Positions 1,277 to 39,189 of a stretch of DNA of 64,000 bases are shown in pieces. Source of the stretch: an uncultured bacterium (lineage in GTDB: Bacteria; Verrucomicrobiota; Kiritimatiellia; CAIKKV01; CAIJXV01); contig CAIJXV010000093.1 in assembly GCA_903824675.1 (NCBI GenBank), positions 67,376 to 131,375 of the forward strand, in the 5' to 3' direction. A program made the translations under genes and the position numbers. Under the pieces are notes generated by a model. That model was given only the letters and a program-made list of their open reading frames with translations. It had not been told where the DNA came from and did not search any database. Positions within the stretch are counted from its first letter, which is position 1. Each line of letters begins with the position of its first letter.

Positions 1277-1292
1277 CGTCTTCTAACGCCTC

Positions 1293-4548: not shown

Positions 4549-4577
4549 TTGCCAAAAGGCGGATGAGACGCTAGGAT
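4549..4577 (+). promoter_or_regulatory. Putative sigma70 promoter for panD
   Basis: TTGCCA-N17-TAGGAT upstream of the AGGAG RBS. Confidence 0.45.
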
Positions 4578-4601
4578 GCACGCCGTTTTGAGGAGTTCGC
4601 C

Positions 4602-4964: not shown

Positions 4965-4971
4965 TGATTCT

Positions 4972-4991
4972 CCGGACCCGCAGAGGTCCGG
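4972..4991. terminator. Hairpin between the convergent panD and clpX stop codons
   Basis: CCGGACC-cgcaga-GGTCCGG perfect 7-bp stem; no clear U-tract. Confidence 0.35.
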
Positions 4992-6245: not shown

Positions 6246-6274
6246 GATCCGCTCCCTCCAGGTCTGTTCGCCGA

Positions 6275-9900: not shown

Positions 9901-9901
9901 A

Positions 9902-10498
9902 TTAGTAATCTCCCAGAAAAGTTTTCAATACCCGATCCAATTGTTCAGACACCATTTCAATCGTTCCACCGTTATAAATCACGAAGTCGGCACGTTCCAT
10001 TTTAACCTCCAGCGGCCATTGCGCACGCAACCGGCCAGCCGCATCATCCTCTGTCCACCCCCGCAACCGCATCCGTTCCGCTTGGGCCTCCCGGGGAGCA
10101 GCCACACACACCACTGCCGTCCATGGTTCATCCAATCCGATTTCATACATCAAGGGAATGATTACCACACCCATCCGCGCCCCTTCCGCCTCTCGCGCCA
10201 CCAGCCACTCGAGCCACAGGCGGTTTACCTGAGGATGAATCAATCGGTTCAGCCGGATCCTCTTGCCATCATGGGCAAAGATTTCGCGCCCCAACCGTCC
10301 TCGATCAATAGCGCCATCCGCACCGAGAATTTGCGAACCAAATTCGGCGATTATTTCCGGATAAACCGAAGACGATCGATCCAACAAAGCATGCCCCAGT
10401 TCATCTGCCTCACAAACGGGAAACCCGCGATCCTGCAACACTCGGCCCACTAGACTTTTCCCACACGCAATCCCCCCCGTTATGGCCAATGTTTTCAT
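9902..10498 (-). CDS. coaE: Dephospho-CoA kinase
   Basis: [38 protein letters not shown]. Confidence 0.93.
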
Positions 10499-10573
10499 GG
10501 ATGAAAGAAAGGAATAGGGGGGAGAATTACTGAATTTGTGGATGAATGTATTACGAACCTAAAGGAGATCATA

Positions 10574-10602
10574 TTTATAGCTGGTTTAGCGAAGACTGTC
10601 AA
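10574..10602 (-). promoter_or_regulatory. Near-consensus sigma70 promoter for coaE-rho-tig-clpP-clpX
   Basis: Minus strand TTGACA-N17-TATAAA. Confidence 0.7.
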
Positions 10603-10642
10603 CCCTGATCCGTGTTTTTTTATCAGCCGACCCCTGTTACCA

Positions 10643-11506
10643 TCAGAACAATTGCCGCTCCCGCAACGGGCGGGCCAGAGATTCAAATTCCAACGACTCA
10701 TAAAACGGCAGCATCTGATCTGCCGATTCAGGCTGGACCCGAAATCGCTCCCAATCCACCTCGGCCATTCGGTCGCCATACAAGCGAATTAAATTCCGAT
10801 TGACTTCAACCCGGTTTCGGCACGATGTTAATTTTTCACGCCAAACCGGCTTGAGCTCTTCCAAATGCTGTAAAATGCCTTCCCAATTGCCCCAATGACC
10901 AAGCCATAAGGCCGCGGTTTTGGGTCCAACACCTGGCACTCCGGGAATATTATCAACCGCATCCCCGGTCAGTGCCAAAAAATCGACCACAGCTTCCGGT
11001 GCAACCCCCAATTTCCCGACAATTTCCGCCGGTCCTAGCCGAACATTGATTTTGGCAGGGGAAACAATACCCACCCGATCGGTTGCCAATTGAAAAAAAT
11101 CCTTGTCGCTGGTCACCAATAAGATTTCCGACATGGCTCCCCCCATTCTCACCAAGGAGGCCATTAAATCATCCGCTTCTTCTCCGGAACGCTTTTCAAA
11201 ATGAATGCCTGCGCGTGTTAGATATTCCTCCCAAACCGTGAATTGTTCTTTAAGTTTTTCGGGCATGGGCGGACGATGCGCTTTATATTCGGGCAGCAGG
11301 GTGGTCCGTTCGGCTGAACGCCCACCATCCATAATGACCCCCCAATGGGTGGGTCTCCATTCGCGCTCCAATTGCCGCATCATCCGGATAAATCCGTAAA
11401 CGGCATTGGTGGGTCGCCCGTCGCGGGTGGACAATTCGGCAATCGCAAAAAAAGCGCGATAAAAGAGATTAGACCCATCAATCAACAAAAGCCGGGATGT
11501 GGACAT
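10643..11506 (-). CDS. Stand-alone 5'-3' exonuclease / flap endonuclease (PolA N-terminal domain only)
   Basis: LLIDGSNLFYRAFFA, TNAVYGF, YKAHR, EADD, TSDKD, GDAVDNIPGVPGVGPKTA. Ends at 287 aa with no polymerase domain. Confidence 0.9.
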   Translation of the reverse strand: MSTSRLLLIDGSNLFYRAFFAIAELSTRDGRPTNAVYGFIRMMRQLEREWRPTHWGVIMDGGRSAERTTLLPEYKAHRPPMPEKLKEQFTVWEEYLTRAGIHFEKRSGEEADDLMASLVRMGGAMSEILLVTSDKDFFQLATDRVGIVSPAKINVRLGPAEIVGKLGVAPEAVVDFLALTGDAVDNIPGVPGVGPKTAALWLGHWGNWEGILQHLEELKPVWREKLTSCRNRVEVNRNLIRLYGDRMAEVDWERFRVQPESADQMLPFYESLEFESLARPLRERQLF

Positions 11507-11520
11507 TCAACCTTGCAGGC

Positions 11521-14500
11521 TCAAGGAGTCGGAGCCGCCTGGGGATTCGGATTTGCAGGCCCCATCAAGGCGGCGCCCAAATCATCCGATTTCTTGATCC
11601 GTTTGCCCCCGGGATCAACCAGAGACGCCGTCACGAAAATCAACAGATTTTTCTTTTCACTCTTTTGAGAGGTGGTACTAAAAAGATGCCCCAGCAGAGG
11701 AATATCGCCCAACAGGGGAATCTTGTCATCAACCGTCTGCAATGTTTCGGTAATCAGGCCGCCCATCACCACCGTAGCGCCATCGTAAATTGAAATCTGC
11801 GTCGTCAGGGTCCGGGTATGGAAGAACGGCTGGGGCATGTTTAAAACATCTTCCGTTCCATCAGCATGCCGAATCACCGACCCATATTGTTGCCACGTCG
11901 GCTCGGTCACCACCTGCGGCGTCATGGTCAGATTAATCGTCCCCCCATTCGGGCTGACTTCCGGCATAACCGTGAGGATAACCCCTACTTCGCGCGTTTC
12001 AAAATCCTGGGGAATCGAAACAAAGGTGTTTTGCTGAACCACGGCTGCGCCCGTATTATTGTTGTTGTTTCCGGCATCCGACCCACTCTGCACATCGAAT
12101 GTGGTGGGATAAATGAATTCCGTCACTACCCGAATCGAGGCTTCGACCCCCGAACGAGTGGTTACTTTCGGGGCGGACAGCACATCGGCGTGCCCCTTTT
12201 GTTCAAGCGCATGCAAAACAAATGTTAATTCCGGATTCGTCAAAATACTGGAAATGGACAACAGCCGTCCCTTGGACCCCGACATCATGGTCTCTTCATC
12301 GCCAGATGACGAATTACCCCAGAACCGCAATCCCTTGGTGAAGCCGCCATCCGAACTATTTTTGTTCATCTGGATTCGTTCTGTGGCCGACAACGGGGTT
12401 CCAAACGCGGTATTCTTTTTCTGCATCATTTCCCAATTATCCGACAACAACCATTCGACCCCCAGCTCTTCCAGTTCCGTCTCATTGATTTCCACAAACC
12501 GGGCCTCGATTTCCACCTGCTGGGGAATAACATTGAGGACACTCAACAAAGCCTCGAATTTGGTCAGATTTTCCGTCGTATTGGCAACAATCACCTGACC
12601 GATTCCGGAATTGTATTGAATGGACGAACCTTGTGGAAATGGGACGCCCATTCCTATGAATTTATCTTTTAAATCATCCCCGCCAGTAGCTGCGGCGCCA
12701 CCATTACCCGCATCAGCCGAAACAAAGTTTCCGCCCTCTGTGCCACTCGTTCCCAAGGCTCTCATCGGGCCAATCGTGGTAACTTTTTCAATAAAGGTGG
12801 GCTCGACGGGATACATGCGCAAAATCATATCACGCGGCTCGTCCGTTCCATCCACGACCATCACCACCCGCCCCTCAACTCGATACTTCAAACCCGCAAC
12901 AGAAGTGATAATATTCAGCGCCTCTGCCAGAGAAATATACCGTGCGGTGAATGTGATAGGAGGGACACCTCCTGCGTTCGCAGCCGCATCCCCCGCCCCG
13001 TCACCTCCTGGAAACCCGCCGGCATTATCCCCACCAACGGCCGGCTGGGCTGCCCCCGCCCCTTTGATCTTGAGGATGATGTTAATTCCGCGAGGACCGT
13101 TTTCGCCTGCGGATTTATCCCCTTCCATACTGGCTTTATTCAAAAACTCAACAACATCATGAATGTTGGCCTGTCGAAATTCAATTTCCGGAATGGTGAT
13201 TTCAGCCATTTTCTTAATAATCGCCTGAGCCTGAGTATCCGGCTTGGATATTTCCTTGGTCGGCGGTGGCTTGATTTCCTTGTAATCCGGAGGATTCCAA
13301 GTTTTTGTTACATCCGCCACCATCCCCTTGGTGGTTGATTCCCGCTCGAGCAAGCCCGTCTTCATCCGCCGCCGAGCCACTTCGCCCAAATATTTAATGG
13401 CGTCCTTATTGGCCGGCTCCAATGCTAAAACAGCTTCAAATTGTGCTTTGGCCTTGTCAAATTCACGCGCGCCGAGGTAATCTTTCCCAGCCTTCAAGAG
13501 CAATTGGACATCCGATTTATTGGCGCCGATAGGCGTTTTCCCCGGCACAACCACCTTGCCAGCACCCGTCCCCGAATCGCTGGCTATTTTGATTTGCTCA
13601 ACTTTCTTTTCCAGTTTTTTACTTAATTCGATCAGGGGTGCATTGTCGGGATTTTCATTTAGATAGGCCTTGGAAAGGTCCAGCGCTTGTGAGTTCTTGT
13701 TCTCCTTGGCCAAACTCTTGACAATTTCAAACTGGCTGATGGTGATATTTTTATTCGCCCGTTTTACCAGTTCGCGATTTTCAACCGAATTCTGAAACGC
13801 ATTGCGAATCATGATAAAATTCGTGTAAGCCGTCTCATAATCCCTGGCCTTCATTGCCGCATCTGCTTTTTCGATTAATTTTTTTGCTTCTTCCGCATTC
13901 GCCTTCCGTCGCACTTCTTCCCGGGCGGCCAGACTCTCCGCAACTTTAGTCCGCCCCTTGAAATATTCTGTATTTTTATCCGAAGGTTGAAGTCCGGCTT
14001 CGGCTGGAACAGCCCCGGCAACCGGGGCCGCCGGAGCAATATCTGCAACTGCGGGCAACGGGGCTTCCGCTAAAGGCGCCTGAGCCTCGGCCGGAGCTTG
14101 GATATTCCCAGATTCGACAACTGGTTTTTCCCCTGCATCCAGCGGGGCGGAAACTTCTTTCGGAAGATCTTGCGTCACTTCGGCCGGAAGCGCTTCTGCG
14201 GCTGGCGCGGCATCTGCAGCCACCGGGGCGGCAGGAGCCTCAGGGGTAGTAACTTCTTTCGGAAGATCTTGCGTCACTTCGGCCGGAAGTGCTTCCTCGG
14301 CCGGCACGGCATCTGCAGCTACCGGGGCAACGGGAACCTCAGGGGTAGCAACCTCTTTCGGAAGATCTTGCGTTACTTCGGCCGGAAGTGCTTCCTCGGC
14401 CGGCGCGGCCACAGGAGCAACCGGTGTCACTGCAGGAGATTCTTCAGCCGTTGCTTTCGCCGGCTCAGCGGGAGAAACGGCGGCGGGCGGAGGGGCAGCC

Positions 14501-14718
14501 ATTCCGCCTAATTCGGCCGGGAGTTCATCAGCGGAAGGAGCCGGCGTGGGCGTGGCAACAGGGGTCACGGGTTGGGCATTCGATGCAATTCCTTGTTTTT
14601 CATTTATCAGGAGATCCTCCGGTGCCACCGTCGAATTATCCTGCCCCATTAAAAGCCAAGCGCCCAGTGCCATAACGACACAAAAAGCCGCAATAAACCC
14701 ATACTTCAGGTGCCGCAT
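11521..14718 (-). CDS. Type II/IV secretin (GspD/PilQ family, Amuc_1098-like) with Ala/Pro/Glu-rich N-terminus and TPR segment
   Basis: QVEIEARFVEI, LSAPKVTTRSG, DFETREVGVILTVMPEV, LVMGGL, KIPLLGDIPLLGHLF, NLLIFVTA. Signal/TM segment after MRHLKY; start at 14718 follows a GGGAGAG RBS. Confidence 0.92.
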   Translation of the reverse strand: MRHLKYGFIAAFCVVMALGAWLLMGQDNSTVAPEDLLINEKQGIASNAQPVTPVATPTPAPSADELPAELGGMAAPPPAAVSPAEPAKATAEESPAVTPVAPVAAPAEEALPAEVTQDLPKEVATPEVPVAPVAADAVPAEEALPAEVTQDLPKEVTTPEAPAAPVAADAAPAAEALPAEVTQDLPKEVSAPLDAGEKPVVESGNIQAPAEAQAPLAEAPLPAVADIAPAAPVAGAVPAEAGLQPSDKNTEYFKGRTKVAESLAAREEVRRKANAEEAKKLIEKADAAMKARDYETAYTNFIMIRNAFQNSVENRELVKRANKNITISQFEIVKSLAKENKNSQALDLSKAYLNENPDNAPLIELSKKLEKKVEQIKIASDSGTGAGKVVVPGKTPIGANKSDVQLLLKAGKDYLGAREFDKAKAQFEAVLALEPANKDAIKYLGEVARRRMKTGLLERESTTKGMVADVTKTWNPPDYKEIKPPPTKEISKPDTQAQAIIKKMAEITIPEIEFRQANIHDVVEFLNKASMEGDKSAGENGPRGINIILKIKGAGAAQPAVGGDNAGGFPGGDGAGDAAANAGGVPPITFTARYISLAEALNIITSVAGLKYRVEGRVVMVVDGTDEPRDMILRMYPVEPTFIEKVTTIGPMRALGTSGTEGGNFVSADAGNGGAAATGGDDLKDKFIGMGVPFPQGSSIQYNSGIGQVIVANTTENLTKFEALLSVLNVIPQQVEIEARFVEINETELEELGVEWLLSDNWEMMQKKNTAFGTPLSATERIQMNKNSSDGGFTKGLRFWGNSSSGDEETMMSGSKGRLLSISSILTNPELTFVLHALEQKGHADVLSAPKVTTRSGVEASIRVVTEFIYPTTFDVQSGSDAGNNNNNTGAAVVQQNTFVSIPQDFETREVGVILTVMPEVSPNGGTINLTMTPQVVTEPTWQQYGSVIRHADGTEDVLNMPQPFFHTRTLTTQISIYDGATVVMGGLITETLQTVDDKIPLLGDIPLLGHLFSTTSQKSEKKNLLIFVTASLVDPGGKRIKKSDDLGAALMGPANPNPQAAPTP
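14152..14405. repeat. In-frame 99-bp (33-aa) tandem repeat, about 2.6 copies, inside the secretin gene
   Basis: CGGAAGATCT starts at 14161, 14260 and 14359. Peptide unit (A/E)EALPAEVTQDLPKEVxTPExPxAPVAADAxP. Confidence 0.95.
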
Positions 14719-14762
14719 AAAGGCTCTCCCTTTGCTGATTACAAAAACGCGAGTTATAACTT

Positions 14763-15785
14763 TCAGGGGGCAGCAGCCGGACCCGCCTCCTGAACCGCAG
14801 ACTGTCGTTCTCCGATCCAAACCTCCCGGCCGGTTAAAAGGTCAATAATTAATACCAGCTTGCGCTCACTGTCAATCTCTTTTACCTTGAATTTTCCGTC
14901 CCGCAAAACGAACTCGGAATCCGTTCGCAACGTAATGGGCCGATTTTCGACATCAAATAACACTGTGATTTCGAACTCCGTCCGGGGGTTTCGCTGGCCC
15001 TTGACGAGCGGAATTGTTTTTTCCCCCCGCTGCAAAACCAGGACTGAATTTTCTTTGTCGAAGCTGACCAGCTTGAAACCGTCGGCTTCCTCGCCCAGGG
15101 TTTTAAAAAGGGTTTTATCCCCGTCCCGCAAATTTAATTGAAACATCAGCCGATGATCGGACAAGGTGCTGACCGCCTTGAAAACGAGGGCGAACTTCAA
15201 GGGTTTAATTTTCGTCAGATACAGTTTTGCGGTCCACGGCGGCCGATCCTGAGGGTCATTGGGCTTGGTCTTGAAATTGAATTCTTCAAGGTTGGTGAAG
15301 CCGTCGGCATCCAAATCACCGGCCGCATCCGAAGGATCGAGAGGATTCAACCCGTATTGGATTTCCCATTCGTTCAGCATCCCGTCTTTATCGCGATCCA
15401 GTGACAAGCCCACGATTTCAGGCTGGGCGAACCGACAAAAGGGACACGTCATGGCGGCATAGGGAATCGGTCGGTCGCAATGGATGCAGTTAACTCGCAA
15501 TTCGGGAACCATCACCTGGTTGGTTTTTGTCCAATCAGCGACTTGGAAAGGCGCTTGGCGCCGTTGGGTGCCATCCTCAAAAACAGCCAAGTCGGGGGGG
15601 GGCGGCTGGGGATGCGCAGGGGTCAATGCGGCCTGTTGCCGTTCGAATTGGGCATATTCACGCTTCAATAAGCCAACATGCATGGCTAAAAAAAACAACG
15701 AAAACAGGAGCGCCAACAAAATGAAAATCGCTGCCAGCTTGTCGTAATAACTTTTGAACCAGAGTTGGATTCGTTCCATGGCCAT
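14763..15785 (-). CDS. Amuc_1099-like pilus-system protein (N-terminal TM, CxxC...CxxC, Asp-rich thrombospondin-3-like repeats)
   Basis: YYDKLAAIFILLALL TM, CIHC-x9-CPFC, DRDKDGMLNEWEIQYGLNP...DLDADGFTNLEEF. Position between the Amuc_1100-like gene and the secretin. Confidence 0.7.
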   Translation of the reverse strand: MAMERIQLWFKSYYDKLAAIFILLALLFSLFFLAMHVGLLKREYAQFERQQAALTPAHPQPPPPDLAVFEDGTQRRQAPFQVADWTKTNQVMVPELRVNCIHCDRPIPYAAMTCPFCRFAQPEIVGLSLDRDKDGMLNEWEIQYGLNPLDPSDAAGDLDADGFTNLEEFNFKTKPNDPQDRPPWTAKLYLTKIKPLKFALVFKAVSTLSDHRLMFQLNLRDGDKTLFKTLGEEADGFKLVSFDKENSVLVLQRGEKTIPLVKGQRNPRTEFEITVLFDVENRPITLRTDSEFVLRDGKFKVKEIDSERKLVLIIDLLTGREVWIGERQSAVQEAGPAAAP

Positions 15786-15786
15786 A

Positions 15787-16809
15787 TCAGGATCGCTTTC
15801 CGTTGTCTTCTTTCCGGAATCGGTAGACATCCACTTCCAAAGTAACCGTCAGCTTGGATTCACGTCCAAACCGAATCCGCTGATCCCGATCCAGCACTTC
15901 AGCGGCGGGGGGCCGCGCAGGAGCCGGGGGGAAGGGAGCACCCGCAATTTCGGCAGGCGCAGGAGATGCTTCTGCCGGGGCCGCGGCAGCCGCCTGACGC
16001 GACACGGCCGAATCTTCTGCGGCCAGATCCACCCGGGTAACCACCACCAACATGGGATGTCGGGCAAGCTTATTCAGAATATCAAACACCACCGATTCGC
16101 GAGCCGAGAACCGGAACACAAAATGCATTTTGCCAAACAGCTCGCCCTCTGGAATCAAACCGGTCTCTTTAACCACCGGATTTTCCGCCACGACAGTAGC
16201 CGGAGCGGACTTCGCACCCCGCCGTCCCGAGGGCACAACCGGAGTCACACCCGTTTCTGTTCCAGCAACAATATCACCCTCAAATTCCTCGCGAATGACC
16301 GCCTTGAGCTCATCAATTTTGGCATCATAGAGGACTTTACACATCTCCTGAACAATGATCAATTGCTGGGTCAACCGCGGCACATCCGGATAGGGGGTCA
16401 AATCTCCAGCCATGTGGCGCTGGAAACCAAAGGCAAACTCGGGGGGAACCCCGATTTTGCGGTCGTGAGCCTGAGCCAACAACTCCTCCCGAACCTTCCA
16501 GAATTGCGTGCTGAAAGCCGCAGGTTTCTGGTCAACCGGCTCGGCTTGAGAGTCGCTCAGCAAGACCAGTAATTTCCTGAACTCCTCCCGAATCCGATCG
16601 AGATTGGAATTTTCCCGCTCGATATTCTCGGGGGATGGAAAGGGCTCCCGCGCATACAATTGCTTTTGGCGGGCGAGGCCACTGCCCAAGGTGGAACTGG
16701 CCTGCCGATATTCGATCACCTTGCGATAGAGAAAAAATCCCATCACAAGAAACATGACCAGGAGTACACTCCCAATAATGATAGCCACAATATGCTGGCG
16801 CGGATTCAT
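15787..16809 (-). CDS. Amuc_1100-like / PilO-like alignment protein
   Basis: N-terminal TM, coiled coil, PAAFSTQF...FAFGFQRH...LTQQL, HFVFRFSA, LEVDVYRF; synteny with pilM and the secretin. Confidence 0.7.
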   Translation of the reverse strand: MNPRQHIVAIIIGSVLLVMFLVMGFFLYRKVIEYRQASSTLGSGLARQKQLYAREPFPSPENIERENSNLDRIREEFRKLLVLLSDSQAEPVDQKPAAFSTQFWKVREELLAQAHDRKIGVPPEFAFGFQRHMAGDLTPYPDVPRLTQQLIIVQEMCKVLYDAKIDELKAVIREEFEGDIVAGTETGVTPVVPSGRRGAKSAPATVVAENPVVKETGLIPEGELFGKMHFVFRFSARESVVFDILNKLARHPMLVVVTRVDLAAEDSAVSRQAAAAAPAEASPAPAEIAGAPFPPAPARPPAAEVLDRDQRIRFGRESKLTVTLEVDVYRFRKEDNGKRS

Positions 16810-16851
16810 CGATTATCCTGTCGTTGATGCCCCCCGAAAGGGCCGCCGATG

Positions 16852-18477
16852 CTAGGGTTTGATTCCGATTTCGATCGTAAACTCGTTCAAAAAGTCAGTC
16901 CCCTGAACCGGCTTGACTCTTTTAACCTGAACCTCCTCGCTGAAGTGACCCTGTCCCTTCAACAAAGCGGCAAACTCACTGATGGCTTCCATCTTAACCT
17001 TGTCGGAAAAGGCTCGACCCCGGATTTCCAGATAGGTCCCGCTTCCCCCGGTCCGGGTAGACACTCCGATATAATTGATCCACATTCCCCCGAGCAGATG
17101 GTCATGAAGCGTGTTGAACATCTCCAGCCATTGGGTGCGACGATGAACCAGGTTCACCAGCGACTCGGCCTGGACATAAACATCGTGCTTCTGCCGGCCG
17201 ATCGCATCAATGGTCTGGGCACTGGAATCCAGTTGACTGACACTTTGCTGAACGGTTTCCATCCGACGCACATAATTGCTTCCAACCCGATGGAAGAAAA
17301 TCCACCAGATCAACATGATCACCACCAAGCCAAAGGCCGTCACCCCCAAAAACGGCAATCGCCGCTCAAACGTCTTGCGCCGGACCAATTCACGCGGCAT
17401 CAAGTTGATTTCCGAGGGGCACCGGTTGACCCGGCGCAACGCCGCCCCTACCACCTGTCCCAGAATACTCACGTCCCCGGCAATTTGATCCGTCGAGATC
17501 TTTTCTGATACGGCAACATTCCGGAAGGGGTTCAAATAATCGACATCGATCTTCAGCTTTTCCTTGAGAAACGTGTTGGTGTGGGGAATGATCGAACTCC
17601 CGCCCGCCAGCAACACCAATGACGGCTGGGACCCCCCCTGTTGGCTCCGGTAAAAATTAATCGTACGGCTAACCTCGGCATGCAACCGGGTCATTACATT
17701 GCGAACCACCTTCGACGCCCGTTCTGCCACTCCGGTTTCGCCCGCTTCATAGGTGCCGCCAAAACCGACGAAGGCATGGGCGACCTTGAGTTTCTCCGCA
17801 TCCTCAAAGGAGAGATCGAACTCCTTCATCAGTTCACGGGTGATCACATTCCCCGCAACCGGAATACTGCGGTTGAAAATCCGGGTGCCTTCGACAAATA
17901 CGACATCCGTCGACCGCGCCCCCATATCCAGAATCATCGTGCAGTCGGGGAGATCCCCATAATTGTAGCGCACCGCATTGTAAAGCGCCAGGGGGGACAC
18001 ATCGACAATTTCCGGATCCAGCCCCGCCGCCATGACGCAATCGGTGATCTTGGCCACCAATTCCTCTTTTACCGCCACAATCAGGACACTCAGTTGCCCG
18101 TCTTCTTCACCGGTTAAAAGATAATCCCATACGACTTCTTCGATCGGGAACGGTACATTGTTCTGGGCCTCAAAACGGACCACCTGCCCGATTTTATCCT
18201 TGGCTACCGGGGGTAACTTGACATTCTTGGGGATGACATTCTGACCGGAAATGGAAAGGCTCACTTTACCGGGATGAATCGCGTGCTCGCGCATGAGATC
18301 CCGAATGCCCGCAACAATGTAGGCGGAAGACTCGGTCGCGGTATCAGGATCCAACCCGATGGGAGCGCTCCCGTAATTCAGCAATTCAATTCCGCCACCC
18401 TTCATCTGGGTAAACTCGGCCAGAACCAATTTGCTTGCGCCAATATCGAGCGCCAGAATGCGTTCGCCGGAAAACAT
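16852..18477 (-). CDS. pilM: PilM-PilN fusion (Amuc_1101-like)
   Basis: ALDIGASKLVL, actin-like PilM motifs (LDMGARST, LLAGGSS), then EINLMP + TM + PilN-like C-terminus (LEIRGRA). Confidence 0.88.
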   Translation of the reverse strand: MFSGERILALDIGASKLVLAEFTQMKGGGIELLNYGSAPIGLDPDTATESSAYIVAGIRDLMREHAIHPGKVSLSISGQNVIPKNVKLPPVAKDKIGQVVRFEAQNNVPFPIEEVVWDYLLTGEEDGQLSVLIVAVKEELVAKITDCVMAAGLDPEIVDVSPLALYNAVRYNYGDLPDCTMILDMGARSTDVVFVEGTRIFNRSIPVAGNVITRELMKEFDLSFEDAEKLKVAHAFVGFGGTYEAGETGVAERASKVVRNVMTRLHAEVSRTINFYRSQQGGSQPSLVLLAGGSSIIPHTNTFLKEKLKIDVDYLNPFRNVAVSEKISTDQIAGDVSILGQVVGAALRRVNRCPSEINLMPRELVRRKTFERRLPFLGVTAFGLVVIMLIWWIFFHRVGSNYVRRMETVQQSVSQLDSSAQTIDAIGRQKHDVYVQAESLVNLVHRRTQWLEMFNTLHDHLLGGMWINYIGVSTRTGGSGTYLEIRGRAFSDKVKMEAISEFAALLKGQGHFSEEVQVKRVKPVQGTDFLNEFTIEIGIKP

Positions 18478-18485
18478 AGCCCCCC

Positions 18486-19121
18486 TTATTTTACAGCTTC
18501 AAAATCATCCGTATTGATAAAGGCAAATGGTGTTTCTTGACGGTTGAGTAGATATCCATCTTTCACCGTCAAATCCGGGCTCTTCCACCAATCCTTGGGA
18601 ATCTTGGCATCTTTTTCTTCCGATTTCAAATCAACTACTTCGCCGTTGTACAACACTTCAACGGCAACCGCAATGACATTTCCGTGACGCGCCACAGTGT
18701 TCGGCCGCAAGTACATCGCGCTCATCCGTGATTTACCCCGGGCCACATCCCGATGCGAAACCGCCCCCTTGAATAAGGTATATTCTTTGCGGCCAGGATC
18801 CCGTTCGGTCCCCTTGTTATAACACAGCACATAATATTGAAATACCAATTCATTGATCCATTCGGGGGTGGTTTCAAAGGTCACCGCAATTTGAGCCCAA
18901 TTTCCGGCCGACGTTTTACCCCGTGAGATGCTGGTGTTGTATTCGGGCGTCTTAATTAATTCCCGTTGACCGATTCCATCGATGGAACGAATCTTGACGG
19001 GGGATAGGGTCTTGCCACCCAGACCCGCAGCTGGCATCCGGTTTTGCGCGGACACGGCCGCCGCCAAAATCAGCATGATCGCCAAAACACAGGATGACAC
19101 ATAAAGTCCGTACCGTTTCAT
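18486..19121 (-). CDS. Amuc_1102-like secreted protein
   Basis: Signal peptide, TPEY...W...YYVL...AMYLRP...WW...LLNRQETPFAF pattern; first gene of the operon. GGAGG RBS before 19121. Confidence 0.7.
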   Translation of the reverse strand: MKRYGLYVSSCVLAIMLILAAAVSAQNRMPAAGLGGKTLSPVKIRSIDGIGQRELIKTPEYNTSISRGKTSAGNWAQIAVTFETTPEWINELVFQYYVLCYNKGTERDPGRKEYTLFKGAVSHRDVARGKSRMSAMYLRPNTVARHGNVIAVAVEVLYNGEVVDLKSEEKDAKIPKDWWKSPDLTVKDGYLLNRQETPFAFINTDDFEAVK

Positions 19122-19164
19122 GTTTGCGGCCTCCAATTGGGGGTACCAATCAAAATGATGGCCG

Positions 19165-19194
19165 TTTATACCTTAAAGCACGGATTAACGCCAA
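19165..19194 (-). promoter_or_regulatory. Possible sigma70 promoter for the Amuc_1102-1098-like operon
   Basis: TTGGCG-N18-TATAAA on the minus strand in an AT-rich divergent region. Confidence 0.35.
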
Positions 19195-19255
19195 TAGAAA
19201 AAATAAATCAAAAAATGGACCGCTTAGTCGCAAGTGACGGATCAAATCTGTGTTG

Positions 19256-19296
19256 TTTAAAAAAAATTTGACCATCCTTGTTCATCTCGCTATATT
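19256..19296 (+). promoter_or_regulatory. Sigma70 promoter with upstream A-tract for the large surface protein
   Basis: TTTAAAAAAAAT directly followed by TTGACC-N17-TATATT. Confidence 0.6.
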
Positions 19297-19408
19297 AATA
19301 GGGACTTGGGATGGGTTACAGAATTAAGAATACTGAACCTAATTTTCAAGTTCAGTCGAAATTTAACATAACGAACACACATATCTCTTATCTAGAATGA
19401 GGTGTTGG

Positions 19409-22384
19409 ATGAAAAAAATGTTGACCCGCTGGCTGGCGCTCAGCTTGTTATCCTTGATTTTGACTTCGTCAGTAAAGGCAGATGGATCCAATATGATGCC
19501 TTACGAGGAAACCTTTGAGTCTTTTTCCAATAACTATTCCATGCTCTACGATGACTCCGTGCCCGGCGTGCCGCCCCGATCCAATGGGTGGTGGCTCGGC
19601 AACAGCAATGACGTCGCCAATGTTTCCAATCTCACATTCTCGTACCTCGCGCCCGGATATCCCTACATCGCGGGCACTCAAACCAATGTTCTCTATTTTG
19701 AAACCGCCACGGGAAGCAAGGGAATATCCAATCTTTTCCCCACCATTCGGACCAACATGTATATGGAAATGATGTTGCGTCCCGGTCGAATGGATGCCGA
19801 AGAAAGCCCGCTGGTCAAGAACGTGACCAATAACTGCCATCTGGCAATGTATGTCAACACCAATGGATTTTTGACCGTTTATCACACCCGCATCACCCCC
19901 ACCGGCGAATATGTTTGGGACGACGAAGCGATGACTAACGTTTGGGTGGAAGGCGAACCGATCTTCTCCACACAATGGACCACCCTCTCCCACACACGGA
20001 TCGAATCCAATGATTGGATTCGAGTATTGATCGAGTTGTGCGTCGAATCCGCGGGATTGCCCCGATTCCAAATCCGCTTGAATAACGGGTTGCCCATGAC
20101 CGACACCAACGCGTTCTTCCTTTCTGGCGAAAGCGTTGACACAGCCCAACCGGGTGGCACTTGGTTTGTGTCTGCCCTGTATTCACTAAAAACCTTTTCC
20201 GGCATCTCCATCGGCGGCATGGGAATGATCGATGATCTCCGAATTCAACAAGGCGTGCCGCTGAACTTGTTGACCTTCACCATCACGCCGACCGTCGATG
20301 AACCCGGTTCCATTAACCCCTCTGAGAAATTTTATCTCGTTCAGGGAAGTTCCACTAATGTCGACATTGCGGCTCCCCTTTATTGGTACATTCAGGACGT
20401 CACAACAAACAGTGTATCGGTCAGCGGGTCCTTCGGTTCTGGCGTGACGAATTTCAGTCAGACCCTATCCGATATTCAAAACGACATCAGCATTCACGCT
20501 AAGATAAGAGCAGAAAACGCAGCGAGCAATACCAATACCCCCTTGTGGTGGCTGGCCAGTCATGGCTTGACGAATTTCAATGTCGACGCCACCAACGATG
20601 TCGATGCCGATGGCAGCCCGACCTGGCAGGAATACCAACTCGGAACCGACCCGACCAATGGGCTCTCGGTCCGCTACCTCATCGCCCCCAGTGTTTCAGG
20701 AATAGGGTCGATCGATCCGTCCACCAATCTCTATGTCTGGGGCTTCCGTCCCGACACACCCGTGTTTAACATCTCGGCTGATCCGGCCTATGTCATCACC
20801 GACATTCTGACCAATGGCGCGTCCATCGGGGGAACCTTCGGGATTCAATCCACGAATTATACGTGGGCCATGGTCTCCTCCTCCGGATCGATTCAAGCGG
20901 TTATCGGCGCCGGGTTCCCCCCACCCGCCAATGTGACTGCAAGCGATGGTAGCTTTACCGGTAAGGTTTATATCACTTGGGACCTGAATAGTATCGGCGC
21001 GACCAATTTCATGATCTATCGCGATACCGGAGCCAATGCCGCCCTGGCCACACAAATCGGGCAAACCAGTAATAACTTCTTCGAGGACACCACGGCCGGA
21101 GCCGGCATCGCCTATTATTACTGGATCAAAGCCTCGAATGAATTATTCATCAGCGGATTCAGCAGTGCCGATACCGGGTATCTCGGCCTGCCGGCGCCTA
21201 CCAATGTGACCGCAACCGATGGCAGCTTCACGAATAAGATTACCATTTCCTGGGCCACCCAGACGGATGCCACCGGTTATCAGGTCTGGCAGAATATTTC
21301 AAATGATGTCTCCACGGCCACCCGAATTCTGGAAACCACGGGCATCACAGTTGACAATCTCACGAATGCCGTGGCCGGCATTCAATATTGGTACTGGGTC
21401 AAGGCCACCAATGCCGTCGCCACCAGCGGGTTTAGCGTGCCGGATAGCGGCTGGCTCAACCTGATGCCCCCGGCCTGGATCACCGCCAGCGATGCCGCCT
21501 TCACGAATAAGATCGAAGTGGTCTGGCTGCCGGCCTTTAGTGCGACCGGGTATGAAGTCTGGCGCGATCTGGCCGACACAACCGGAACTGCGGCACGCGT
21601 GGGAACTTCAACGTCAACCAATTATAACGACTTGGACGTGGGTTTCGGGACCAACTACTATTACTGGGTCAAGGCCACCAACACCCTGGGAACCAGTGAC
21701 TTCAGCGCGTCGGATATCGGCACCTTGAAGTCTGCGGTCGTCTACGTGCTCCTCATTCCGTCGGTTGACGCACAGGGGACCATCGAGCCGGCAACCAGTA
21801 TCTGGGTGACTGCGGGATCAACGACCAACTTCCTGATCACCGCTTCGAATTATTATCATGTTGCCGGCGTTTCAACCGACAATGTGGCGGTCATAGGGAG
21901 CTTTGGCGGAAGTTCGTATAACTTCATCTACTCGAATGTCATGGTGACGGGGACCGGAACCGTTCATGGTCTGATCGCCGCCACGGGGACCACCAATAAC
22001 AATATCCCGTACTACTGGCTGGCGGCCAATGGCCTGACCAACGGGGGACTGACGTTCGAGCAGGCCGTGACCAATGATTATGACAGTGACGAGATGAGTT
22101 CGGGAGACGAATTCATCGCGGGGACGGATCCGACCAATCGGATGTCCTCCTTCAAGATCGTCTTCCGCGGCACTCAGAACGGATCCAATGTGGTCAAGTG
22201 GCTGGGTGGTACATCCGGTGGCGTCATGACGAATCCTTACCAGATCCTGTTCCGCACCAATCTGACCAGTGGAACGTGGGACGGCACGGGCGTGGTCGGC
22301 CGCGTCGAATTCACCAATACGTGGATGGATAAGGCGTCGACCAACTCCAGGGTCTTCTTCTACCGGATCAAAGCTACGGATTGA
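19409..22384 (+). CDS. Large secreted modular surface protein (3 InlB-B-like beta repeats, 3 fibronectin-III-like repeats, 2 TSP3-like Asp motifs, C-terminal FYRI domain)
   Basis: Signal peptide MKKMLTRWLAL...VKA. Repeats PxNVTA(S/T)DGSFTxK(I/V)xI(S/T)W, YxYW(I/V)KA(S/T)N, and PxxWLxxxGLT...DxDxDx...EYxxGTDPTN. Ends VFFYRIKATD. Confidence 0.8.
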   Translation: MKKMLTRWLALSLLSLILTSSVKADGSNMMPYEETFESFSNNYSMLYDDSVPGVPPRSNGWWLGNSNDVANVSNLTFSYLAPGYPYIAGTQTNVLYFETATGSKGISNLFPTIRTNMYMEMMLRPGRMDAEESPLVKNVTNNCHLAMYVNTNGFLTVYHTRITPTGEYVWDDEAMTNVWVEGEPIFSTQWTTLSHTRIESNDWIRVLIELCVESAGLPRFQIRLNNGLPMTDTNAFFLSGESVDTAQPGGTWFVSALYSLKTFSGISIGGMGMIDDLRIQQGVPLNLLTFTITPTVDEPGSINPSEKFYLVQGSSTNVDIAAPLYWYIQDVTTNSVSVSGSFGSGVTNFSQTLSDIQNDISIHAKIRAENAASNTNTPLWWLASHGLTNFNVDATNDVDADGSPTWQEYQLGTDPTNGLSVRYLIAPSVSGIGSIDPSTNLYVWGFRPDTPVFNISADPAYVITDILTNGASIGGTFGIQSTNYTWAMVSSSGSIQAVIGAGFPPPANVTASDGSFTGKVYITWDLNSIGATNFMIYRDTGANAALATQIGQTSNNFFEDTTAGAGIAYYYWIKASNELFISGFSSADTGYLGLPAPTNVTATDGSFTNKITISWATQTDATGYQVWQNISNDVSTATRILETTGITVDNLTNAVAGIQYWYWVKATNAVATSGFSVPDSGWLNLMPPAWITASDAAFTNKIEVVWLPAFSATGYEVWRDLADTTGTAARVGTSTSTNYNDLDVGFGTNYYYWVKATNTLGTSDFSASDIGTLKSAVVYVLLIPSVDAQGTIEPATSIWVTAGSTTNFLITASNYYHVAGVSTDNVAVIGSFGGSSYNFIYSNVMVTGTGTVHGLIAATGTTNNNIPYYWLAANGLTNGGLTFEQAVTNDYDSDEMSSGDEFIAGTDPTNRMSSFKIVFRGTQNGSNVVKWLGGTSGGVMTNPYQILFRTNLTSGTWDGTGVVGRVEFTNTWMDKASTNSRVFFYRIKATD

Positions 22385-22401
22385 TCGGTTCTTTGGGGCA
22401 T

Positions 22402-22439
22402 CAAAAACCGTGGGACCACCTCCCGCGGTTTTTGTTTTT
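22402..22439 (+). terminator. Intrinsic terminator after the surface protein gene
   Basis: CAAAAACCGTGGGA-ccacc-TCCCGCGGTTTTTG followed by TTTTT. Confidence 0.75.
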
Positions 22440-22442
22440 ACA

Positions 22443-22919
22443 ATGAAAAAAATTGATTCGTTATGCCTGTTTGTCGCCACCGGTTTTGGGACCGGCTATT
22501 CGCCGTGGGCGTCCGGCACCGTGGGAACTCTGCCCGGGGTCGCCATCGCCCTGCTCCTGTCACCCTTCGTGCTTCCGATTCAAATCCTTGTGGTACTGGC
22601 GCTGATCGCCGGGTCGGTTCCCTTTTGTGACCGCGCAGAAAAGATATTTGGCACCAAGGACGACGGGCGCATCGTGGCCGATGAAATGGTCACATTCCCA
22701 CTCTGCCTGCTCGGCTTGACCGGCGCCCCCCTTTGGATGTGGGCTCTCGCTTTCCTGAATCACCGGATTCTGGATATTCTCAAGCCACCGCCCGCTCGAC
22801 AAATCCAGGATTTAAAAGGGGGATTGGGTATTGTAGCCGACGATGTCGTCTCTTCGCTCTATTGTCTGGGTCTCAACCACCTGATGTTTTGGGCTATTAC
22901 GCACTTCATCGCTCGATAA
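22443..22919 (+). CDS. pgpA: Phosphatidylglycerophosphatase A
   Basis: ATGFGTGYSPWASGTVGT, KDDGRIVADEM, RILDILKPPP, GGLGIVADD. Confidence 0.9.
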   Translation: MKKIDSLCLFVATGFGTGYSPWASGTVGTLPGVAIALLLSPFVLPIQILVVLALIAGSVPFCDRAEKIFGTKDDGRIVADEMVTFPLCLLGLTGAPLWMWALAFLNHRILDILKPPPARQIQDLKGGLGIVADDVVSSLYCLGLNHLMFWAITHFIAR

Positions 22920-22958
22920 TCGATTGCTATTGCTAAACAGGAGAGGCAGAGTTAAACC

Positions 22959-23705
22959 ATGAATTTAGAAGCCCTTTTGGGCCAAGTTTCCGCCGGTTCT
23001 CTCACACCAGAACATGCGCTCAAATTAATCCGGGCTTCGGCGGAAACCGATATTGGTTTTGCCCATGTGGACCTTCACCGGCTCCACCGTCGTGGTTTTC
23101 CGGAAGTCATTTATTGCCCCGGAAAAACATCGGACCAGATTATTGCTATTATGAAAAGCCTCTCGGGCGCCGCTCAAAATAGTTTTGCAACCCGGGCTTC
23201 TCCGGATCAATTCACTGCCATTCATCGGGTTTTCCCTTCAGCCGTGTATCACGCAGTAGCCCGAGCCATCACGCTGGATGTCACCCCCCTCCCTCCTCCG
23301 CAAGGACAAGTTCTCGTGATGACCGCGGGAACCTCTGATATCCCTGTGGCCGAAGAAGCAGCCCTCACCGCAGAACGGCTCGGGGCTCATGTCAGCCGGC
23401 TTTTTGATGTCGGGGTCGCCGGACTGCATCGTCTTCTAACGCATCTGGATGAGCTCAAAAAAGCACGCGTTATTATCGCCGTCGCAGGGATGGAGGGCGC
23501 GCTCCCTTCCGTTGTCGGCGGCCTTGTCAATGTTCCCATTGTCGCCGTTCCCACCAGTATTGGATATGGCGCGCATCTTCAAGGTTGGACCCCCTTGCTG
23601 GCCATGCTCAATAGTTGCTCTCCCGGCATTTCAGTCGTTAACATCGACAATGGGTTTGGCGCCGGGGTGTGCGCGGCCCTCATCAATCACCCGCCCTCTT
23701 CGTAG
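22959..23705 (+). CDS. larB: Nickel-pincer cofactor biosynthesis carboxylase LarB
   Basis: DLHRLHRRGFPEVIYCPGK, AGTSDIPVAEEA, DVGVAGLHRL, AGMEGALPSVV, PTSIGYG, VNIDNGFGA. Confidence 0.93.
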   Translation: MNLEALLGQVSAGSLTPEHALKLIRASAETDIGFAHVDLHRLHRRGFPEVIYCPGKTSDQIIAIMKSLSGAAQNSFATRASPDQFTAIHRVFPSAVYHAVARAITLDVTPLPPPQGQVLVMTAGTSDIPVAEEAALTAERLGAHVSRLFDVGVAGLHRLLTHLDELKKARVIIAVAGMEGALPSVVGGLVNVPIVAVPTSIGYGAHLQGWTPLLAMLNSCSPGISVVNIDNGFGAGVCAALINHPPSS

Positions 23706-23726
23706 CCTCCCCAAAAGACATGCCTT

Positions 23727-24911
23727 ATGAATGAACGAATTCTTGTTTGGGATAGCATCGGGGGTGCCAGCGGAGACCTGTTGCTGGCGACCCTCTTGGA
23801 TCTCGGGGCCAACCCGGACGAGCTCAAAGCCGCCTTGCGGGGCATTCCGCTGCCTGATCCCTATGACATCGAGGTCACCCCCGTTGTCGATCATGGAATT
23901 AAAGGAGTGCGGGTCAACGTCGCCGTACACGCCCACGCACATACCCATCGGGGGCTGAATGACATCTTGAAACTCATCGAACAAAGCACCCTGCCACCAA
24001 CGGTCTGTGACCATATCACGCGGGTTTTTCGCCGACTGGCCGAGGCCGAAGCCGCCATCCACGCGGTTCCGGTCAACCAGGTTCATTTTCACGAAGTGGG
24101 CGCCGTGGATGCGATCATTGATATCTCGGCCGTCTGTTGGTTGCTCGATCATTTAAAAATCGATGCGCACCAGATTCGCCCTCTGCCTCTGGGACATGGC
24201 ACGATCAAATGCGCGCATGGCGTACTTCCCTCCCCAGCCCCCGCTACCTTGGAATTACTCAAGGGGGTTCCAGTCCTCTCGGTTGATGAACCCTTTGAAT
24301 TGGTGACGCCCACCGGGGCTGCGCTCCTGACGTCATTTCCCCTTCAGAAAGATCAATCCGCCCCTCTCCGGCTGGTGCGATCCGGCTATGGATTCGGACA
24401 CCGAACCCTGAACTCGCGGCCCAATTTGCTTCGAGCCTCCCTGTTCGAAATCGCCCTATCCGACTTAAGCACCCCGTCCGAATGCCTGATGCTGGAGTGC
24501 AATCTGGACAATGCCAACCCGGAATGGATCGGAGATGTGACCGGCCAATTGATGGAAGCTGGCGCATTGGATGTGTTTATCACTGCCGTTCAAATGAAAA
24601 AACAACGGCCCGGCCAGCTCTTGAGTGTCCTCTGCCGTTCCGGAGATGAAGACCGGTTGCAGTCCTTGATTTTCAGGGAAACCCCAACCTTGGGAATCCG
24701 CCGATTCCCGGTTCAGCGCACAACGCTTGAACGCCAGTTCTTACAAGTTAAAACCCGTTTCGGCACCATCGGAATCAAGTGCGGTTTTTGGCAGGGCGCC
24801 CGCATTACGGCTTCGCCGGAATATGAGGATTGCCGAATCCAAGCACGCCATCATGGCGTACCTCTTCGCCAGGTCTACGAAGCGGCATTACGGGCCATCC
24901 CGGAAGGGTGA
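23727..24911 (+). CDS. larC: Nickel-pincer cofactor nickel insertase LarC (full length)
   Basis: GGASGD, HAHAHTH, HFHEVGAVDAIIDI, HGVLPSPAPAT, LVTPTGAAL, ECNLD, MKKQRPG, PEYEDC. Confidence 0.93.
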   Translation: MNERILVWDSIGGASGDLLLATLLDLGANPDELKAALRGIPLPDPYDIEVTPVVDHGIKGVRVNVAVHAHAHTHRGLNDILKLIEQSTLPPTVCDHITRVFRRLAEAEAAIHAVPVNQVHFHEVGAVDAIIDISAVCWLLDHLKIDAHQIRPLPLGHGTIKCAHGVLPSPAPATLELLKGVPVLSVDEPFELVTPTGAALLTSFPLQKDQSAPLRLVRSGYGFGHRTLNSRPNLLRASLFEIALSDLSTPSECLMLECNLDNANPEWIGDVTGQLMEAGALDVFITAVQMKKQRPGQLLSVLCRSGDEDRLQSLIFRETPTLGIRRFPVQRTTLERQFLQVKTRFGTIGIKCGFWQGARITASPEYEDCRIQARHHGVPLRQVYEAALRAIPEG

Positions 24912-24926
24912 GACAACCCACGTCCT

Positions 24927-25787
24927 TCAGGCCAACGCCGTTCCCCGCCAGTGTAATTTTTGACGTAGAACAGAAAAATAGTCATATCCCGGCACATGCA
25001 AAAAGCGAATTCCCCGGGGAGATCGGGTCACCACCACGCGGTCACCCGGCAGCAGGGGCTCTCCCCGTTGCCCGTCGGCTAATAGCAATACTTCGTCTGA
25101 AGATTTATCCAAACGGATCACGATCTCGGACGTGTCCGGCACCACCAGCGGCCGAGTGCTGAGGGTATGGGGGCACATTAAGGCCACTAATAAGATGGCG
25201 GCTTCGGGCATGACAATCGGCCCCCCCGCCGACAAGGCATAACCGGTGCTGCCGGTTGGTGTTGCCACAATCAGCCCGTCGCCGACAAAATGGGAAACTT
25301 CCCGCCCCCCCACCGACATCCCCAACGTGATCACCCGCCCCCCGGTCGACCGGATAACAATATCATTCAAGGCCCGACAATGAATCACCTCGGGGCTCTC
25401 CCGTAAAATTGTCCCTGACAACATCGTCCGTTCCGAAACCGTTGCGGTATTTCGGGCTATAGATTCGATGGCCTTCGGCAATTCACCTTCTGTCACCGAG
25501 GTTAAAAATCCAAGACTGCCCAGGTTGACCCCTAGAATGGGCTTGTCCCGGCCATCCAACTCTCGGACGGCCTGCAGAAGGGTTCCATCGCCGCCCAGGA
25601 CGACGAGCGCCTCGATCGTCTCCCAATCCTGCGACAAGGTAGCGACCAGGGGAGGATCGGCCAAGACGGCCACTTCCGGGGTCGTCGTTACCGTCAGATC
25701 CCATTGCCGGGCCAATTCCAAAAGATGTCGCATCCCAGACCGGGCATGCGCCTTTTGTAAATTTGCAATCACCCCGATTTTTTTCAT
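24927..25787 (-). CDS. nadK: NAD kinase
   Basis: LGGDGTLL, GVNLGSLGFL, ALND, GDGLIVATPTGSTGYALSAGGP. Confidence 0.94.
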   Translation of the reverse strand: MKKIGVIANLQKAHARSGMRHLLELARQWDLTVTTTPEVAVLADPPLVATLSQDWETIEALVVLGGDGTLLQAVRELDGRDKPILGVNLGSLGFLTSVTEGELPKAIESIARNTATVSERTMLSGTILRESPEVIHCRALNDIVIRSTGGRVITLGMSVGGREVSHFVGDGLIVATPTGSTGYALSAGGPIVMPEAAILLVALMCPHTLSTRPLVVPDTSEIVIRLDKSSDEVLLLADGQRGEPLLPGDRVVVTRSPRGIRFLHVPGYDYFSVLRQKLHWRGTALA

Positions 25788-39184: not shown

Positions 39185-39189
39185 AACGC

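Follow-up and report, generated by a model that had tools for sequence, protein, structure and literature searches.

The gene and its transcription

In a window of 64,000 nucleotides from contig CAIJXV010000093.1 of an uncultured verrucomicrobial bacterium (positions below count from the first letter of this whole stretch), we examined a gene for a 991-residue modular protein and, in particular, the domain with which that protein ends. The open reading frame (ORF) lies on the + strand and extends from an ATG at 19409 to a TGA at 22382-22384 (19409..22384, stop codon included). It is supported by three orthologues (P0002-P0004) and by metatranscriptome contigs. An alternative in-frame ATG at 19397 would add four residues, but 19409 is the likelier start because a GAGG Shine-Dalgarno-like motif sits 6 nt ahead of it. 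In line with what had been proposed in an earlier, sequence-only reading of this stretch, the gene diverges from a secretin operon on the - strand across an AT-rich region, the 272-bp spacer (19137-19408) having a GC content of 35.7% as against 55.1% across the window. A candidate sigma-70-like promoter on the + strand (TTGACC-17-TATATT, 19268..19296) has 10 of 12 matches, with one such site expected by chance in the region. Beyond the other end of the gene, 18 nt past the stop codon, lies an intrinsic terminator with a 14-bp stem, seven G-C pairs and a T-run (22402..22444, + strand). Given this promoter-like site and the strong terminator hairpin, the gene looks like its own, monocistronic transcription unit.

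The window sequence is present in lake and freshwater metagenomes, and lake metatranscriptome contigs from three runs (X14, X15 and X17; 9800-25000) are 95-99% identical to it. These contigs span the secretin, PilM-like and Amuc_1102-like genes of the operon and the entire 991-residue gene, and in all three runs RNA contigs end at 22394-22398, just ahead of the terminator hairpin. Word depth in them is similar for the gene and the divergent operon and near zero for the downstream LarB and LarC genes, contig depth being a poor measure of expression that shows only that gene and operon are both transcribed.

A search with the full-length protein found three orthologues, at 98% (P0002), 71% (P0003) and 69% (P0004) identity. 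In the same relatives (L001, L003), the PilM-like protein (16852-18477) is 87-93% identical and the 991-residue protein only 69-71%; fast divergence of that kind is typical of surface-exposed proteins.

Protein anatomy

From its N-terminus, the protein consists of a signal peptide, an N-terminal domain, a first repeat (R1), a first Ca-loop linker (linker 1), a second repeat (R2), three fibronectin type III (FN3) domains, a third repeat (R3), a second Ca-loop linker (linker 2) and a tail, all encoded on the + strand. It had been described from the sequence as a Sec-exported modular protein, and this description stands: the ORF 19409-22384 is real, and the N-terminus, which reads MKKMLTRWLALSLLSLILTSSVKA and then DG, has by inspection the basic n-region, hydrophobic core and VKA-D cleavage-type site of a putative Sec signal peptide (aa 1-24, 19409..19480). 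The beta-rich N-terminal domain that follows (aa 25-286, 19481..20266) has no Pfam or NCBIfam match, and its AlphaFold2 model, made from three sequences, was unusable (predicted local distance difference test, pLDDT, 37). Self-comparison revealed three beta-rich repeats of ~83 residues, R1 (aa 287-372, 20267..20524), R2 (aa 421-503, 20669..20917) and R3 (aa 775-860, 21731..21988), with pairwise identities of 31-34% (E 1e-10 to 1e-15). Flg_new_2 (PF18998) was found in relatives matching the R1 region, where the window protein itself has no Pfam match. Between R2 and R3 lie three classical bacterial FN3 domains (aa 504-772, 20918..21724), for which the Pfam models fn3 and Ig_J_second both score above their cut-offs and which match the Fn3-like PDB entry 3MPC (E 0.003). 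Their F strands read YYYWIKA, YWYWVKA and YYYWVKA, each followed by a G strand.

An element of the form 'P..WL..GLTN...D.D.D...E...GTDPTN' is present in two copies, after R1 and after R3. The first, linker 1, is an internal EF-hand/TSP3-type linker recognised by inspection (PLWWLASHGLTN...DVDADGSPTWQEYQLGTDPTN; aa 375-420, 20531..20668); its motif is the same as that of linker 2, but it precedes repeat R2 and not the tail. Its Ca loop reads DVDADG...E, whereas that of linker 2 (aa 865-912, 22001..22144) is degenerate, DYDSDEMSSGDE; linker 2 comprises three short helices with this loop and then AGTDPTN (aa 904-910). The C-terminal FN3-like tail (aa 913-991, 22145..22381), as supported by hhalign, AlphaFold2 and Foldseek, has six predicted strands and the end FFYRIKATD. 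The ~80-residue beta-rich end domain that the sequence-only reading had placed after GTDPTN is therefore found at the same coordinates. The C-terminus of the protein (...NSRVFFYRIKATD) contains no hydrophobic helix, PEP motif or basic cluster, the features of a PEP-CTERM protein, and a six-frame translation of the window contained no further tails.

A recurrent C-terminal module

Besides the orthologues, the full-length search returned six proteins that have unrelated bodies and resemble the 991-residue protein only over their last ~120 residues. The shared part is the linker, then a tail of ~70 residues closing FYRI.V or YYQIKV at the extreme end. A word-indexed search with the tail only gave a single 52-aa fragment, and single-sequence phmmer with the tail missed canonical tails, which made a profile search necessary. 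We therefore built a tail-only profile from nine tails, with the linker excluded, and searched it against 1.84 billion representative proteins. With a threshold of E<=1e-3 it matched 3,875 clusters (50% identity level), and with E<=1e-10 it still matched 362. According to a reanalysis of the top 150 profile matches, the last domain lies at most 5 residues from the C-terminus in 135 of 149 top representatives (91%). Among proteins of the linker type, the module is C-terminal in 87/89 and single-copy in 85/89. An independent metagenome scan yielded 80 loci; they contain 88 tail ORFs, and 85 of these have their stop codon no more than 6 residues behind the domain. Full-length, profile and metagenome searches thus agree with the earlier remark that verrucomicrobial exoproteins of unrelated kinds commonly have FYR-ending tails. 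None of the 40 family members scanned has a Pfam-A (2025) or NCBIfam (2026) model over the tail, and our literature search returned no C-terminal sorting domain for this bacterial group.

The window protein has both marks of the family, in that its tail is terminal and is preceded by the P..WL..GLTN...D.D.D...E..AGT.PTN linker. Against a canonical tail profile built without the window protein's own family, its tail scored a probability of 93.7% (E 1.9e-7) in hhalign and an independent E-value of 3e-6 over aa 913-989 in hmmsearch. Among orthologues that are 69-71% identical overall, the tail is 71-90% identical. These comparisons indicate that the window tail is a real but divergent member of the family, beyond what chance would give.

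The proteins that carry the tail are otherwise unrelated. They include proteins with sialidase, chitobiase, PKD, PATR autotransporter-type repeat, Lcl_C and C39-like domains, as well as a subtilase with CBM6 and an InlB-B-repeat and pectate-lyase-like proteins. The few members with a taxonomic name come from metagenome-assembled genomes of Kiritimatiellales, Pontiellaceae, Kiritimatiellia and Verrucomicrobiota. A crude heuristic recognised a signal-peptide-like N-terminus in at least 63 of 97 full-length representatives; the figure is a lower bound, since the heuristic misses obvious cases (P0003, P0004) and was faced with many N-terminally truncated representatives.

In the adjacent paralogues at L033, L036 and L037, linker and tail are 66-82% identical as compared with ~43% elsewhere in the proteins, and the tail of the orthologue P0004 is 90% identical as compared with 69% overall. 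The higher linker-tail identity of the paralogue pairs suggests that the module is under extra constraint or, alternatively, subject to gene conversion. Two tail-bearing genes were seen in 11 of the 77 loci with a profile-detected tail ORF (these three, L042 and seven more), usually adjacent and on the same strand. Recurrent neighbours at tail loci include glycoside hydrolases and housekeeping genes; the second-largest neighbour cluster was discarded, its members being shadow ORFs antisense to the tail genes themselves.

Predicted fold of the linker and tail

An AlphaFold2 model of linker and tail, built from a 40-sequence alignment, has three short helices and six strands at a pLDDT of 80.4. 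Linker 2 is its best-predicted part (pLDDT 87-91), with helices at model residues 8-13, 23-28 and 38-44. In a Foldseek search of the PDB with this model, FN3 domains (neogenin, titin and others) ranked on top with a probability of up to 0.99, the top 50 matches having E ~0.03 and template-modelling (TM) scores of 0.4-0.5 on the target. A PDB sequence search with the tail profiles likewise gave the bacterial Fn3-like 3MPC as best match (E 0.02). By these matches the tail belongs to the fibronectin-III superfamily, and its fold is thus not a new one. In the model the sandwich has six strands and not seven, the protein stopping two residues past the F strand FFYRIKA. Pfam fn3 (PF00041) has no match on aa 913-991 even at E<=1, and only the central repeats match it. 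We also considered whether the tail had recently been copied from the FN3 repeats of this protein; it aligns with them in the same register, but hhalign gave an E of 0.03 and a probability of 1.6%, and the idea was set aside.

Linker 2 weakly matches TSP3_bac (PF18884) at aa 899-910 (12.8 bits against a cut-off of 25), and TSP3_bac matches occur in 7 of 40 family members. There is also a weak match of linker 2 to Amuc_1099_fam (model positions 97-152), as there is to the Amuc_1099 family in 18 of 40 family members (model positions 105-152). Judged by its motif, the linker is an EF-hand/TSP3-type Ca-loop element for which Ca binding is predicted, and its pattern, 'P..WL..YGLTN...D.D.DG...E..AGT.PTN', reads as one single loop of this type. 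Modelled as a whole, the last ~130 residues of the protein are a two-part C-terminal module in which a helix-loop-helix linker would lead into a six-strand FN3-like sandwich. Both parts, FN3 fold and Ca loop, are known; their fixed terminal combination on thousands of exoproteins appears not to have been described in the domain libraries and literature that we searched.

The divergent operon and other loci of the window

The divergent operon (11521..19136, - strand), annotated from NCBIfam and Pfam matches, is of interest here as context only. Reading away from the 991-residue gene, it encodes an Amuc_1102-like protein (18486-19136; NCBIfam Amuc_1102_rel above cut-off), an Amuc_1101/PilM-like protein (16852-18477; NCBIfam match below cut-off), an Amuc_1100-like protein (15787-16809; likewise below cut-off), an Amuc_1099-like protein (14763-15830; NCBIfam Amuc_1099_fam above cut-off) and an Amuc_1098-like secretin (11521-14820; NCBIfam match below cut-off). 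After the secretin come a 5'-3' exonuclease, CoaE and Rho. All five Amuc_1098-1102 families are present in canonical order, with CoaE and Rho behind them, which is the arrangement of MUL2, a type IV pilus-like locus of Akkermansia (Amuc_1098-1102) that Davey et al. are said to have treated in 2023. Since three of the five proteins score under the NCBIfam cut-offs, they are distant relatives of the MUL2 proteins. As to gene calls, the Amuc_1099-like ORF shares 44 nt with the Amuc_1100-like ORF and 58 nt with that of the secretin, and the secretin is called at 1065 aa in relatives compared with 1099 aa here. At its N-terminus the Amuc_1099-like protein (14763-15830) carries a hydrophobic helix, and it also contains a CxxC...CxxC zinc-ribbon-like motif (CIHCDRPIPYAAMTCPFC). 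A further motif, the Ca loop 'W..YGL...D.D.DG..N..E', is shared with the tail linker and stands ahead of a C-terminal half that is beta-rich. Homology of the tail protein to this Amuc_1099-like protein beyond the linker was rejected, as BLASTP was not significant and only the generic Ca-loop motif is common to both.

Across Akkermansiaceae, published MUL2 loci are flanked on the secretin side by CoaE and Rho, and the other flanking genes encode a 3-dehydroquinase, prolyl-tRNA synthetase (ProRS) and a helicase, with no FN3 protein among them (PMC13174399). In three sources, MUL2 is tied to mucin or glycan acquisition and to attachment, and is placed in most Verrucomicrobiales, in fewer Chthoniobacterales and in essentially no Methylacidiphilales (PMC13174399, PMC12418764, bioRxiv 10.64898/2025.12.30.696933). 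In our data, the 991-residue gene lies beside the operon only in close relatives, those of ~70% identity among them, where the whole region is collinear, PgpA, LarB, LarC and NAD kinase included. The conserved adjacency adds no weight for that very reason. A search of species genomes with the PilM-like protein, aimed at distant MUL2 loci but based on an alignment that was too uniform, gave only one locus, 91% identical.

Some 30 kb downstream of the gene, the window contains an operon of the type II secretion/pseudopilus type (52595-60256, - strand), with FabF, FabG and FabD as upstream genes. It encodes GspF (58460-60256), five proteins with a prepilin N-methylation motif, namely a GspG-like (56644-57123) and a GspH-like protein (56175-56675) and the products of 57641-58372, 57133-57654 and 55137-55802, a small ORF without Pfam match (55703-56188) and an 880-aa protein without Pfam or NCBIfam match (52595-55237). 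Neither an ATPase nor a secretin belongs to this cluster within the window. The operon could be a source of the pilins or of the platform protein that are absent from the MUL2 locus. Elsewhere in the window, a 1114-aa tetratricopeptide repeat (TPR) protein (1293-4637, - strand) has the XrtA/PEP-CTERM-system protein PrsT as its best NCBIfam match (130 bits, below cut-off), and an O-antigen-ligase-like membrane protein (38734-41049, + strand) matches the exosortase-associated ligase model. These two putative proteins hint that the same organism has a PEP-CTERM/exosortase system, which is an alternative and already established route of C-terminal sorting.

Function of the module

With anatomy, homology, fold class, positional bias, carrier diversity and expression established, we can weigh what the protein and its C-terminal module might do. 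Taken as a whole, we give an even chance to an explanation in which a freshwater Verrucomicrobiota bacterium makes from this separately transcribed gene a Sec-exported, modular, all-beta protein of its surface or surroundings, with a C-terminal module that serves localisation or attachment. For the module, the reading we prefer, tentatively and at even chances or slightly less, is that linker and tail form a shared localisation or attachment module. It is preferred because of the positional bias, the diversity of the carriers and the extra conservation, a terminal position being expected of a tag for sorting or anchoring. Such a module would keep exported proteins on the cell surface or offer them to a partner that they share, perhaps depending on Ca to do so, and would add nothing to catalysis or ligand specificity. 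In a stronger version, which we regard as unlikely, it would be a dedicated localisation tag of the Kiritimatiellia/Verrucomicrobiota, read by an envelope partner or at an export step. The tag might then act through Ca-dependent docking or through a partner strand that completes the open F-strand edge of the six-strand sandwich, and the narrowest form of this idea would make the MUL2 pilus-like system the partner in this lineage.

Several observations weigh against a localisation module and favour, in part, an alternative that we consider possible but rather doubtful, in which the tail would be a structural, spacer or glycan-binding FN3-like domain and the 'linker + FN3' pair a cassette shuffled onto the ends of exoproteins. 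The tail profile also matches P0132, an fn3 array of nine classical domains, and a Firmicute S8 peptidase in which the repeats are internal, and cross-matches of this kind to ordinary fn3 arrays, together with the superfamily assignment, mean that the fold itself is generic. On glycoside hydrolases, a terminal FN3-like domain often serves only as a spacer, and the tail neighbourhoods are rich in glycoside hydrolases, that is, in genes for polysaccharide use. Tandem and internal copies exist as well: 44 of 149 top representatives have two or more tails, copies without a linker stand mostly in tandem arrays of up to ~10 and are terminal in only 47 of 147 cases, and 10 of 97 linker-preceded copies are internal. 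The C-terminal placement on which the sequence-only reading built is upheld by the 135/149 and 85/88 terminal cases, while these arrays and internal copies go against it, internal occurrence being one of that reading's own grounds for refutation. In the 991-residue protein, too, the same linker stands internally before a different domain. Rare proteins continue beyond the module, with a further domain of ~170-250 aa after linker and tail (L059:2249-4840, L065:6668-10060) or an acidic low-complexity extension of 30-40 aa after the tail (P0135, P0150); no PEP-CTERM followed the tail in the non-terminal exceptions inspected. Around the 80 tail loci, no neighbouring gene was enriched that could be a dedicated partner. 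The window tail is itself a family outlier, at only 13.8 bits against the canonical profile, and the six-strand topology depends on a single AlphaFold2 model, itself of moderate confidence. What a spacer or carbohydrate-binding module would not lead one to expect is that 98% of linker-type proteins carry the module at their very end, with just 0-6 residues beyond it, that carriers are as unlike as PATR adhesin-like repeat proteins, proteases and lectin-like proteins, and that in paralogues the module is better conserved than the remaining sequence.

Which machinery might recognise such a module is a separate matter. The sequence-only reading took the tail for a sorting signal of the adjacent MUL2 secretin and the 991-residue protein for its cargo, in a pathway specific to the Planctomycetes-Verrucomicrobia-Chlamydiae (PVC) group. 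We find this highly improbable. It is true that the gene diverges from the operon across a shared AT-rich spacer, as the cargo gene may do beside a type II secretion operon (pulA-pulC of Klebsiella), that their adjacency is kept at ~70% identity, that both have a similar depth in the metatranscriptomes with LarB and LarC at about zero, and that the linker motif recurs in the Amuc_1099-like component. Yet the adjacency is confined to fully collinear close relatives, the gene appears to be a separate transcription unit, and the shared motif is a generic TSP3-type one. In ~0.7 Mb around the 80 tail loci there were no PilM-, Amuc_1100- or Amuc_1102-like genes, and 79 of the loci have no secretin. 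The one that does (L015), within chance expectation, is a short contig (L015:1-6949) in which tail genes at 1-396 and 404-4156 directly precede secretin-like genes at 4251-5921 and 5948-6949. The best NCBIfam match of these secretins is Amuc_1098_fam, which speaks for the cargo idea, but at 154 and 62 bits they fall far under the cut-off of 750. Named tail carriers are, moreover, mostly Kiritimatiellales, whereas MUL2 is documented only in Verrucomicrobiales and partly in Chthoniobacterales. The MUL2 locus comprises an alignment subcomplex and a pilin-like protein without ATPase or platform protein, the flanking genes listed for it in Akkermansiaceae are others (PMC13174399), and the function given in the literature is glycan acquisition and attachment, not protein export. 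The survey of the tail loci removes the sole positive evidence for MUL2 beyond the gene order of this lineage and leaves the claim that the adjacent secretin system is the translocon unsupported: the MUL2-type operon (PilMNOPQ-like plus pilin-like) adjoins the gene in this lineage and is no more than a speculative translocon. Non-adjacency alone does not refute a general sorting role, because cargo genes of the type IX secretion system (T9SS) are also scattered in genomes. Very unlikely, in our judgement, is recognition of the module by a general type II secretion/pseudopilus machine, possibly the GspF operon, in place of MUL2. The window does encode GspF, five prepilin-motif proteins and the 880-aa protein, and the 991-residue protein has a putative Sec signal peptide like the substrates of type II secretion, which exports folded periplasmic proteins with such peptides. 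However, no linkage evidence ties the module to this cluster, which has neither ATPase nor secretin within the window, and type II substrates are not known to be marked by any linear signal or domain.

A shared localisation module would matter for these bacteria, as Verrucomicrobiota and Kiritimatiellia have a major part in breaking down mucin and sulfated and fucose-rich polysaccharides. To our knowledge, how large exoproteins are placed on or beyond their outer membrane is poorly understood, PEP-CTERM/exosortase aside. Being present on thousands of exoproteins and absent from Pfam-A and NCBIfam, the module offers a handle on this question, through a hidden Markov model (HMM), the prediction of surface proteomes and a partner search by phylogenetic profiling. 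If it were a true sorting or anchoring tag, it would be a new entry in the short list of bacterial C-terminal sorting systems and, for thousands of exoproteins, a functional analogue of the C-terminal domain (CTD) of T9SS cargo or of PEP-CTERM. If it were merely a terminal FN3-like spacer, it would still be a useful annotation for proteins now labelled hypothetical. Export of tail proteins by MUL2, if true, would recast a medically studied locus, an outcome that the present findings do not support.

Comparison with known systems

The module resembles the PEP-CTERM/exosortase, LPXTG and GlyGly-CTERM signals in being a C-terminal tag common to many exoproteins of one lineage, and it is this tail that closes the PATR-repeat proteins here, which elsewhere carry PEP-CTERM or an autotransporter barrel. 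Unlike PEP-CTERM-type signals, it is a folded domain without transmembrane helix, basic cluster or short signature motif, and we found no sortase-like partner for it. With cellulosome dockerins it has in common a putative Ca-binding helix-loop-helix at the C-terminus of diverse glycan-degrading enzymes; it differs in having one Ca loop in place of two F-hand repeats and in the beta-sandwich that follows, sequence similarity to dockerins was not detected, and no cohesin-like partner is known. The bacterial TSP3 repeat (PF18884) shares with the linker the D-x-D-x-D-G-x(5)-E pattern and the subsequent GT.PTN, the loop being degenerate in the C-terminal copy of the window protein. In contrast to a TSP3 wire, the linker has a single loop between helices, a 'P..WL..YGLTN' lead-in and no multiple repeats.

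The window operon is like MUL2 of Akkermansia in its five families, in their order and in the CoaE and Rho genes after the secretin, while the 991-residue gene is outside the described MUL2 loci (PMC13174399). Ordinary FN3 domains (PF00041; 3MPC) agree with the tail in predicted fold and, in register, in the Trp of strand B, the Tyr of strand C and the tyrosine-corner F strand, which reads FYRIKA in the tail and YYYWVKA in the FN3 domains of the same protein. The tail departs from them in ending after strand F without a G strand, in its strong terminal bias, in a conserved ..TNL.. motif after strand C and in having no Pfam fn3 match.

The CTD of T9SS cargo in Bacteroidota (type A; TIGR04183/PF18962, Por_Secre_tail) comes with a cleavage step, an attachment and a translocon, none of which is known for the tail. 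Neither the window protein nor any of 40 family members was matched by its models (Por_Secre_tail and NCBIfam types A and B). The tail further differs in being FN3-like with six predicted strands, in the Ca-loop linker ahead of it, in its tandem and internal copies and in the Kiritimatiellia and Verrucomicrobiota origin of its named members. What the two share is a beta-sandwich of ~80 residues, immunoglobulin-like in the T9SS CTD, placed at the extreme C-terminus of otherwise unrelated proteins with Sec signal peptides, and as a model of how the tail might act the T9SS CTD comes closest.

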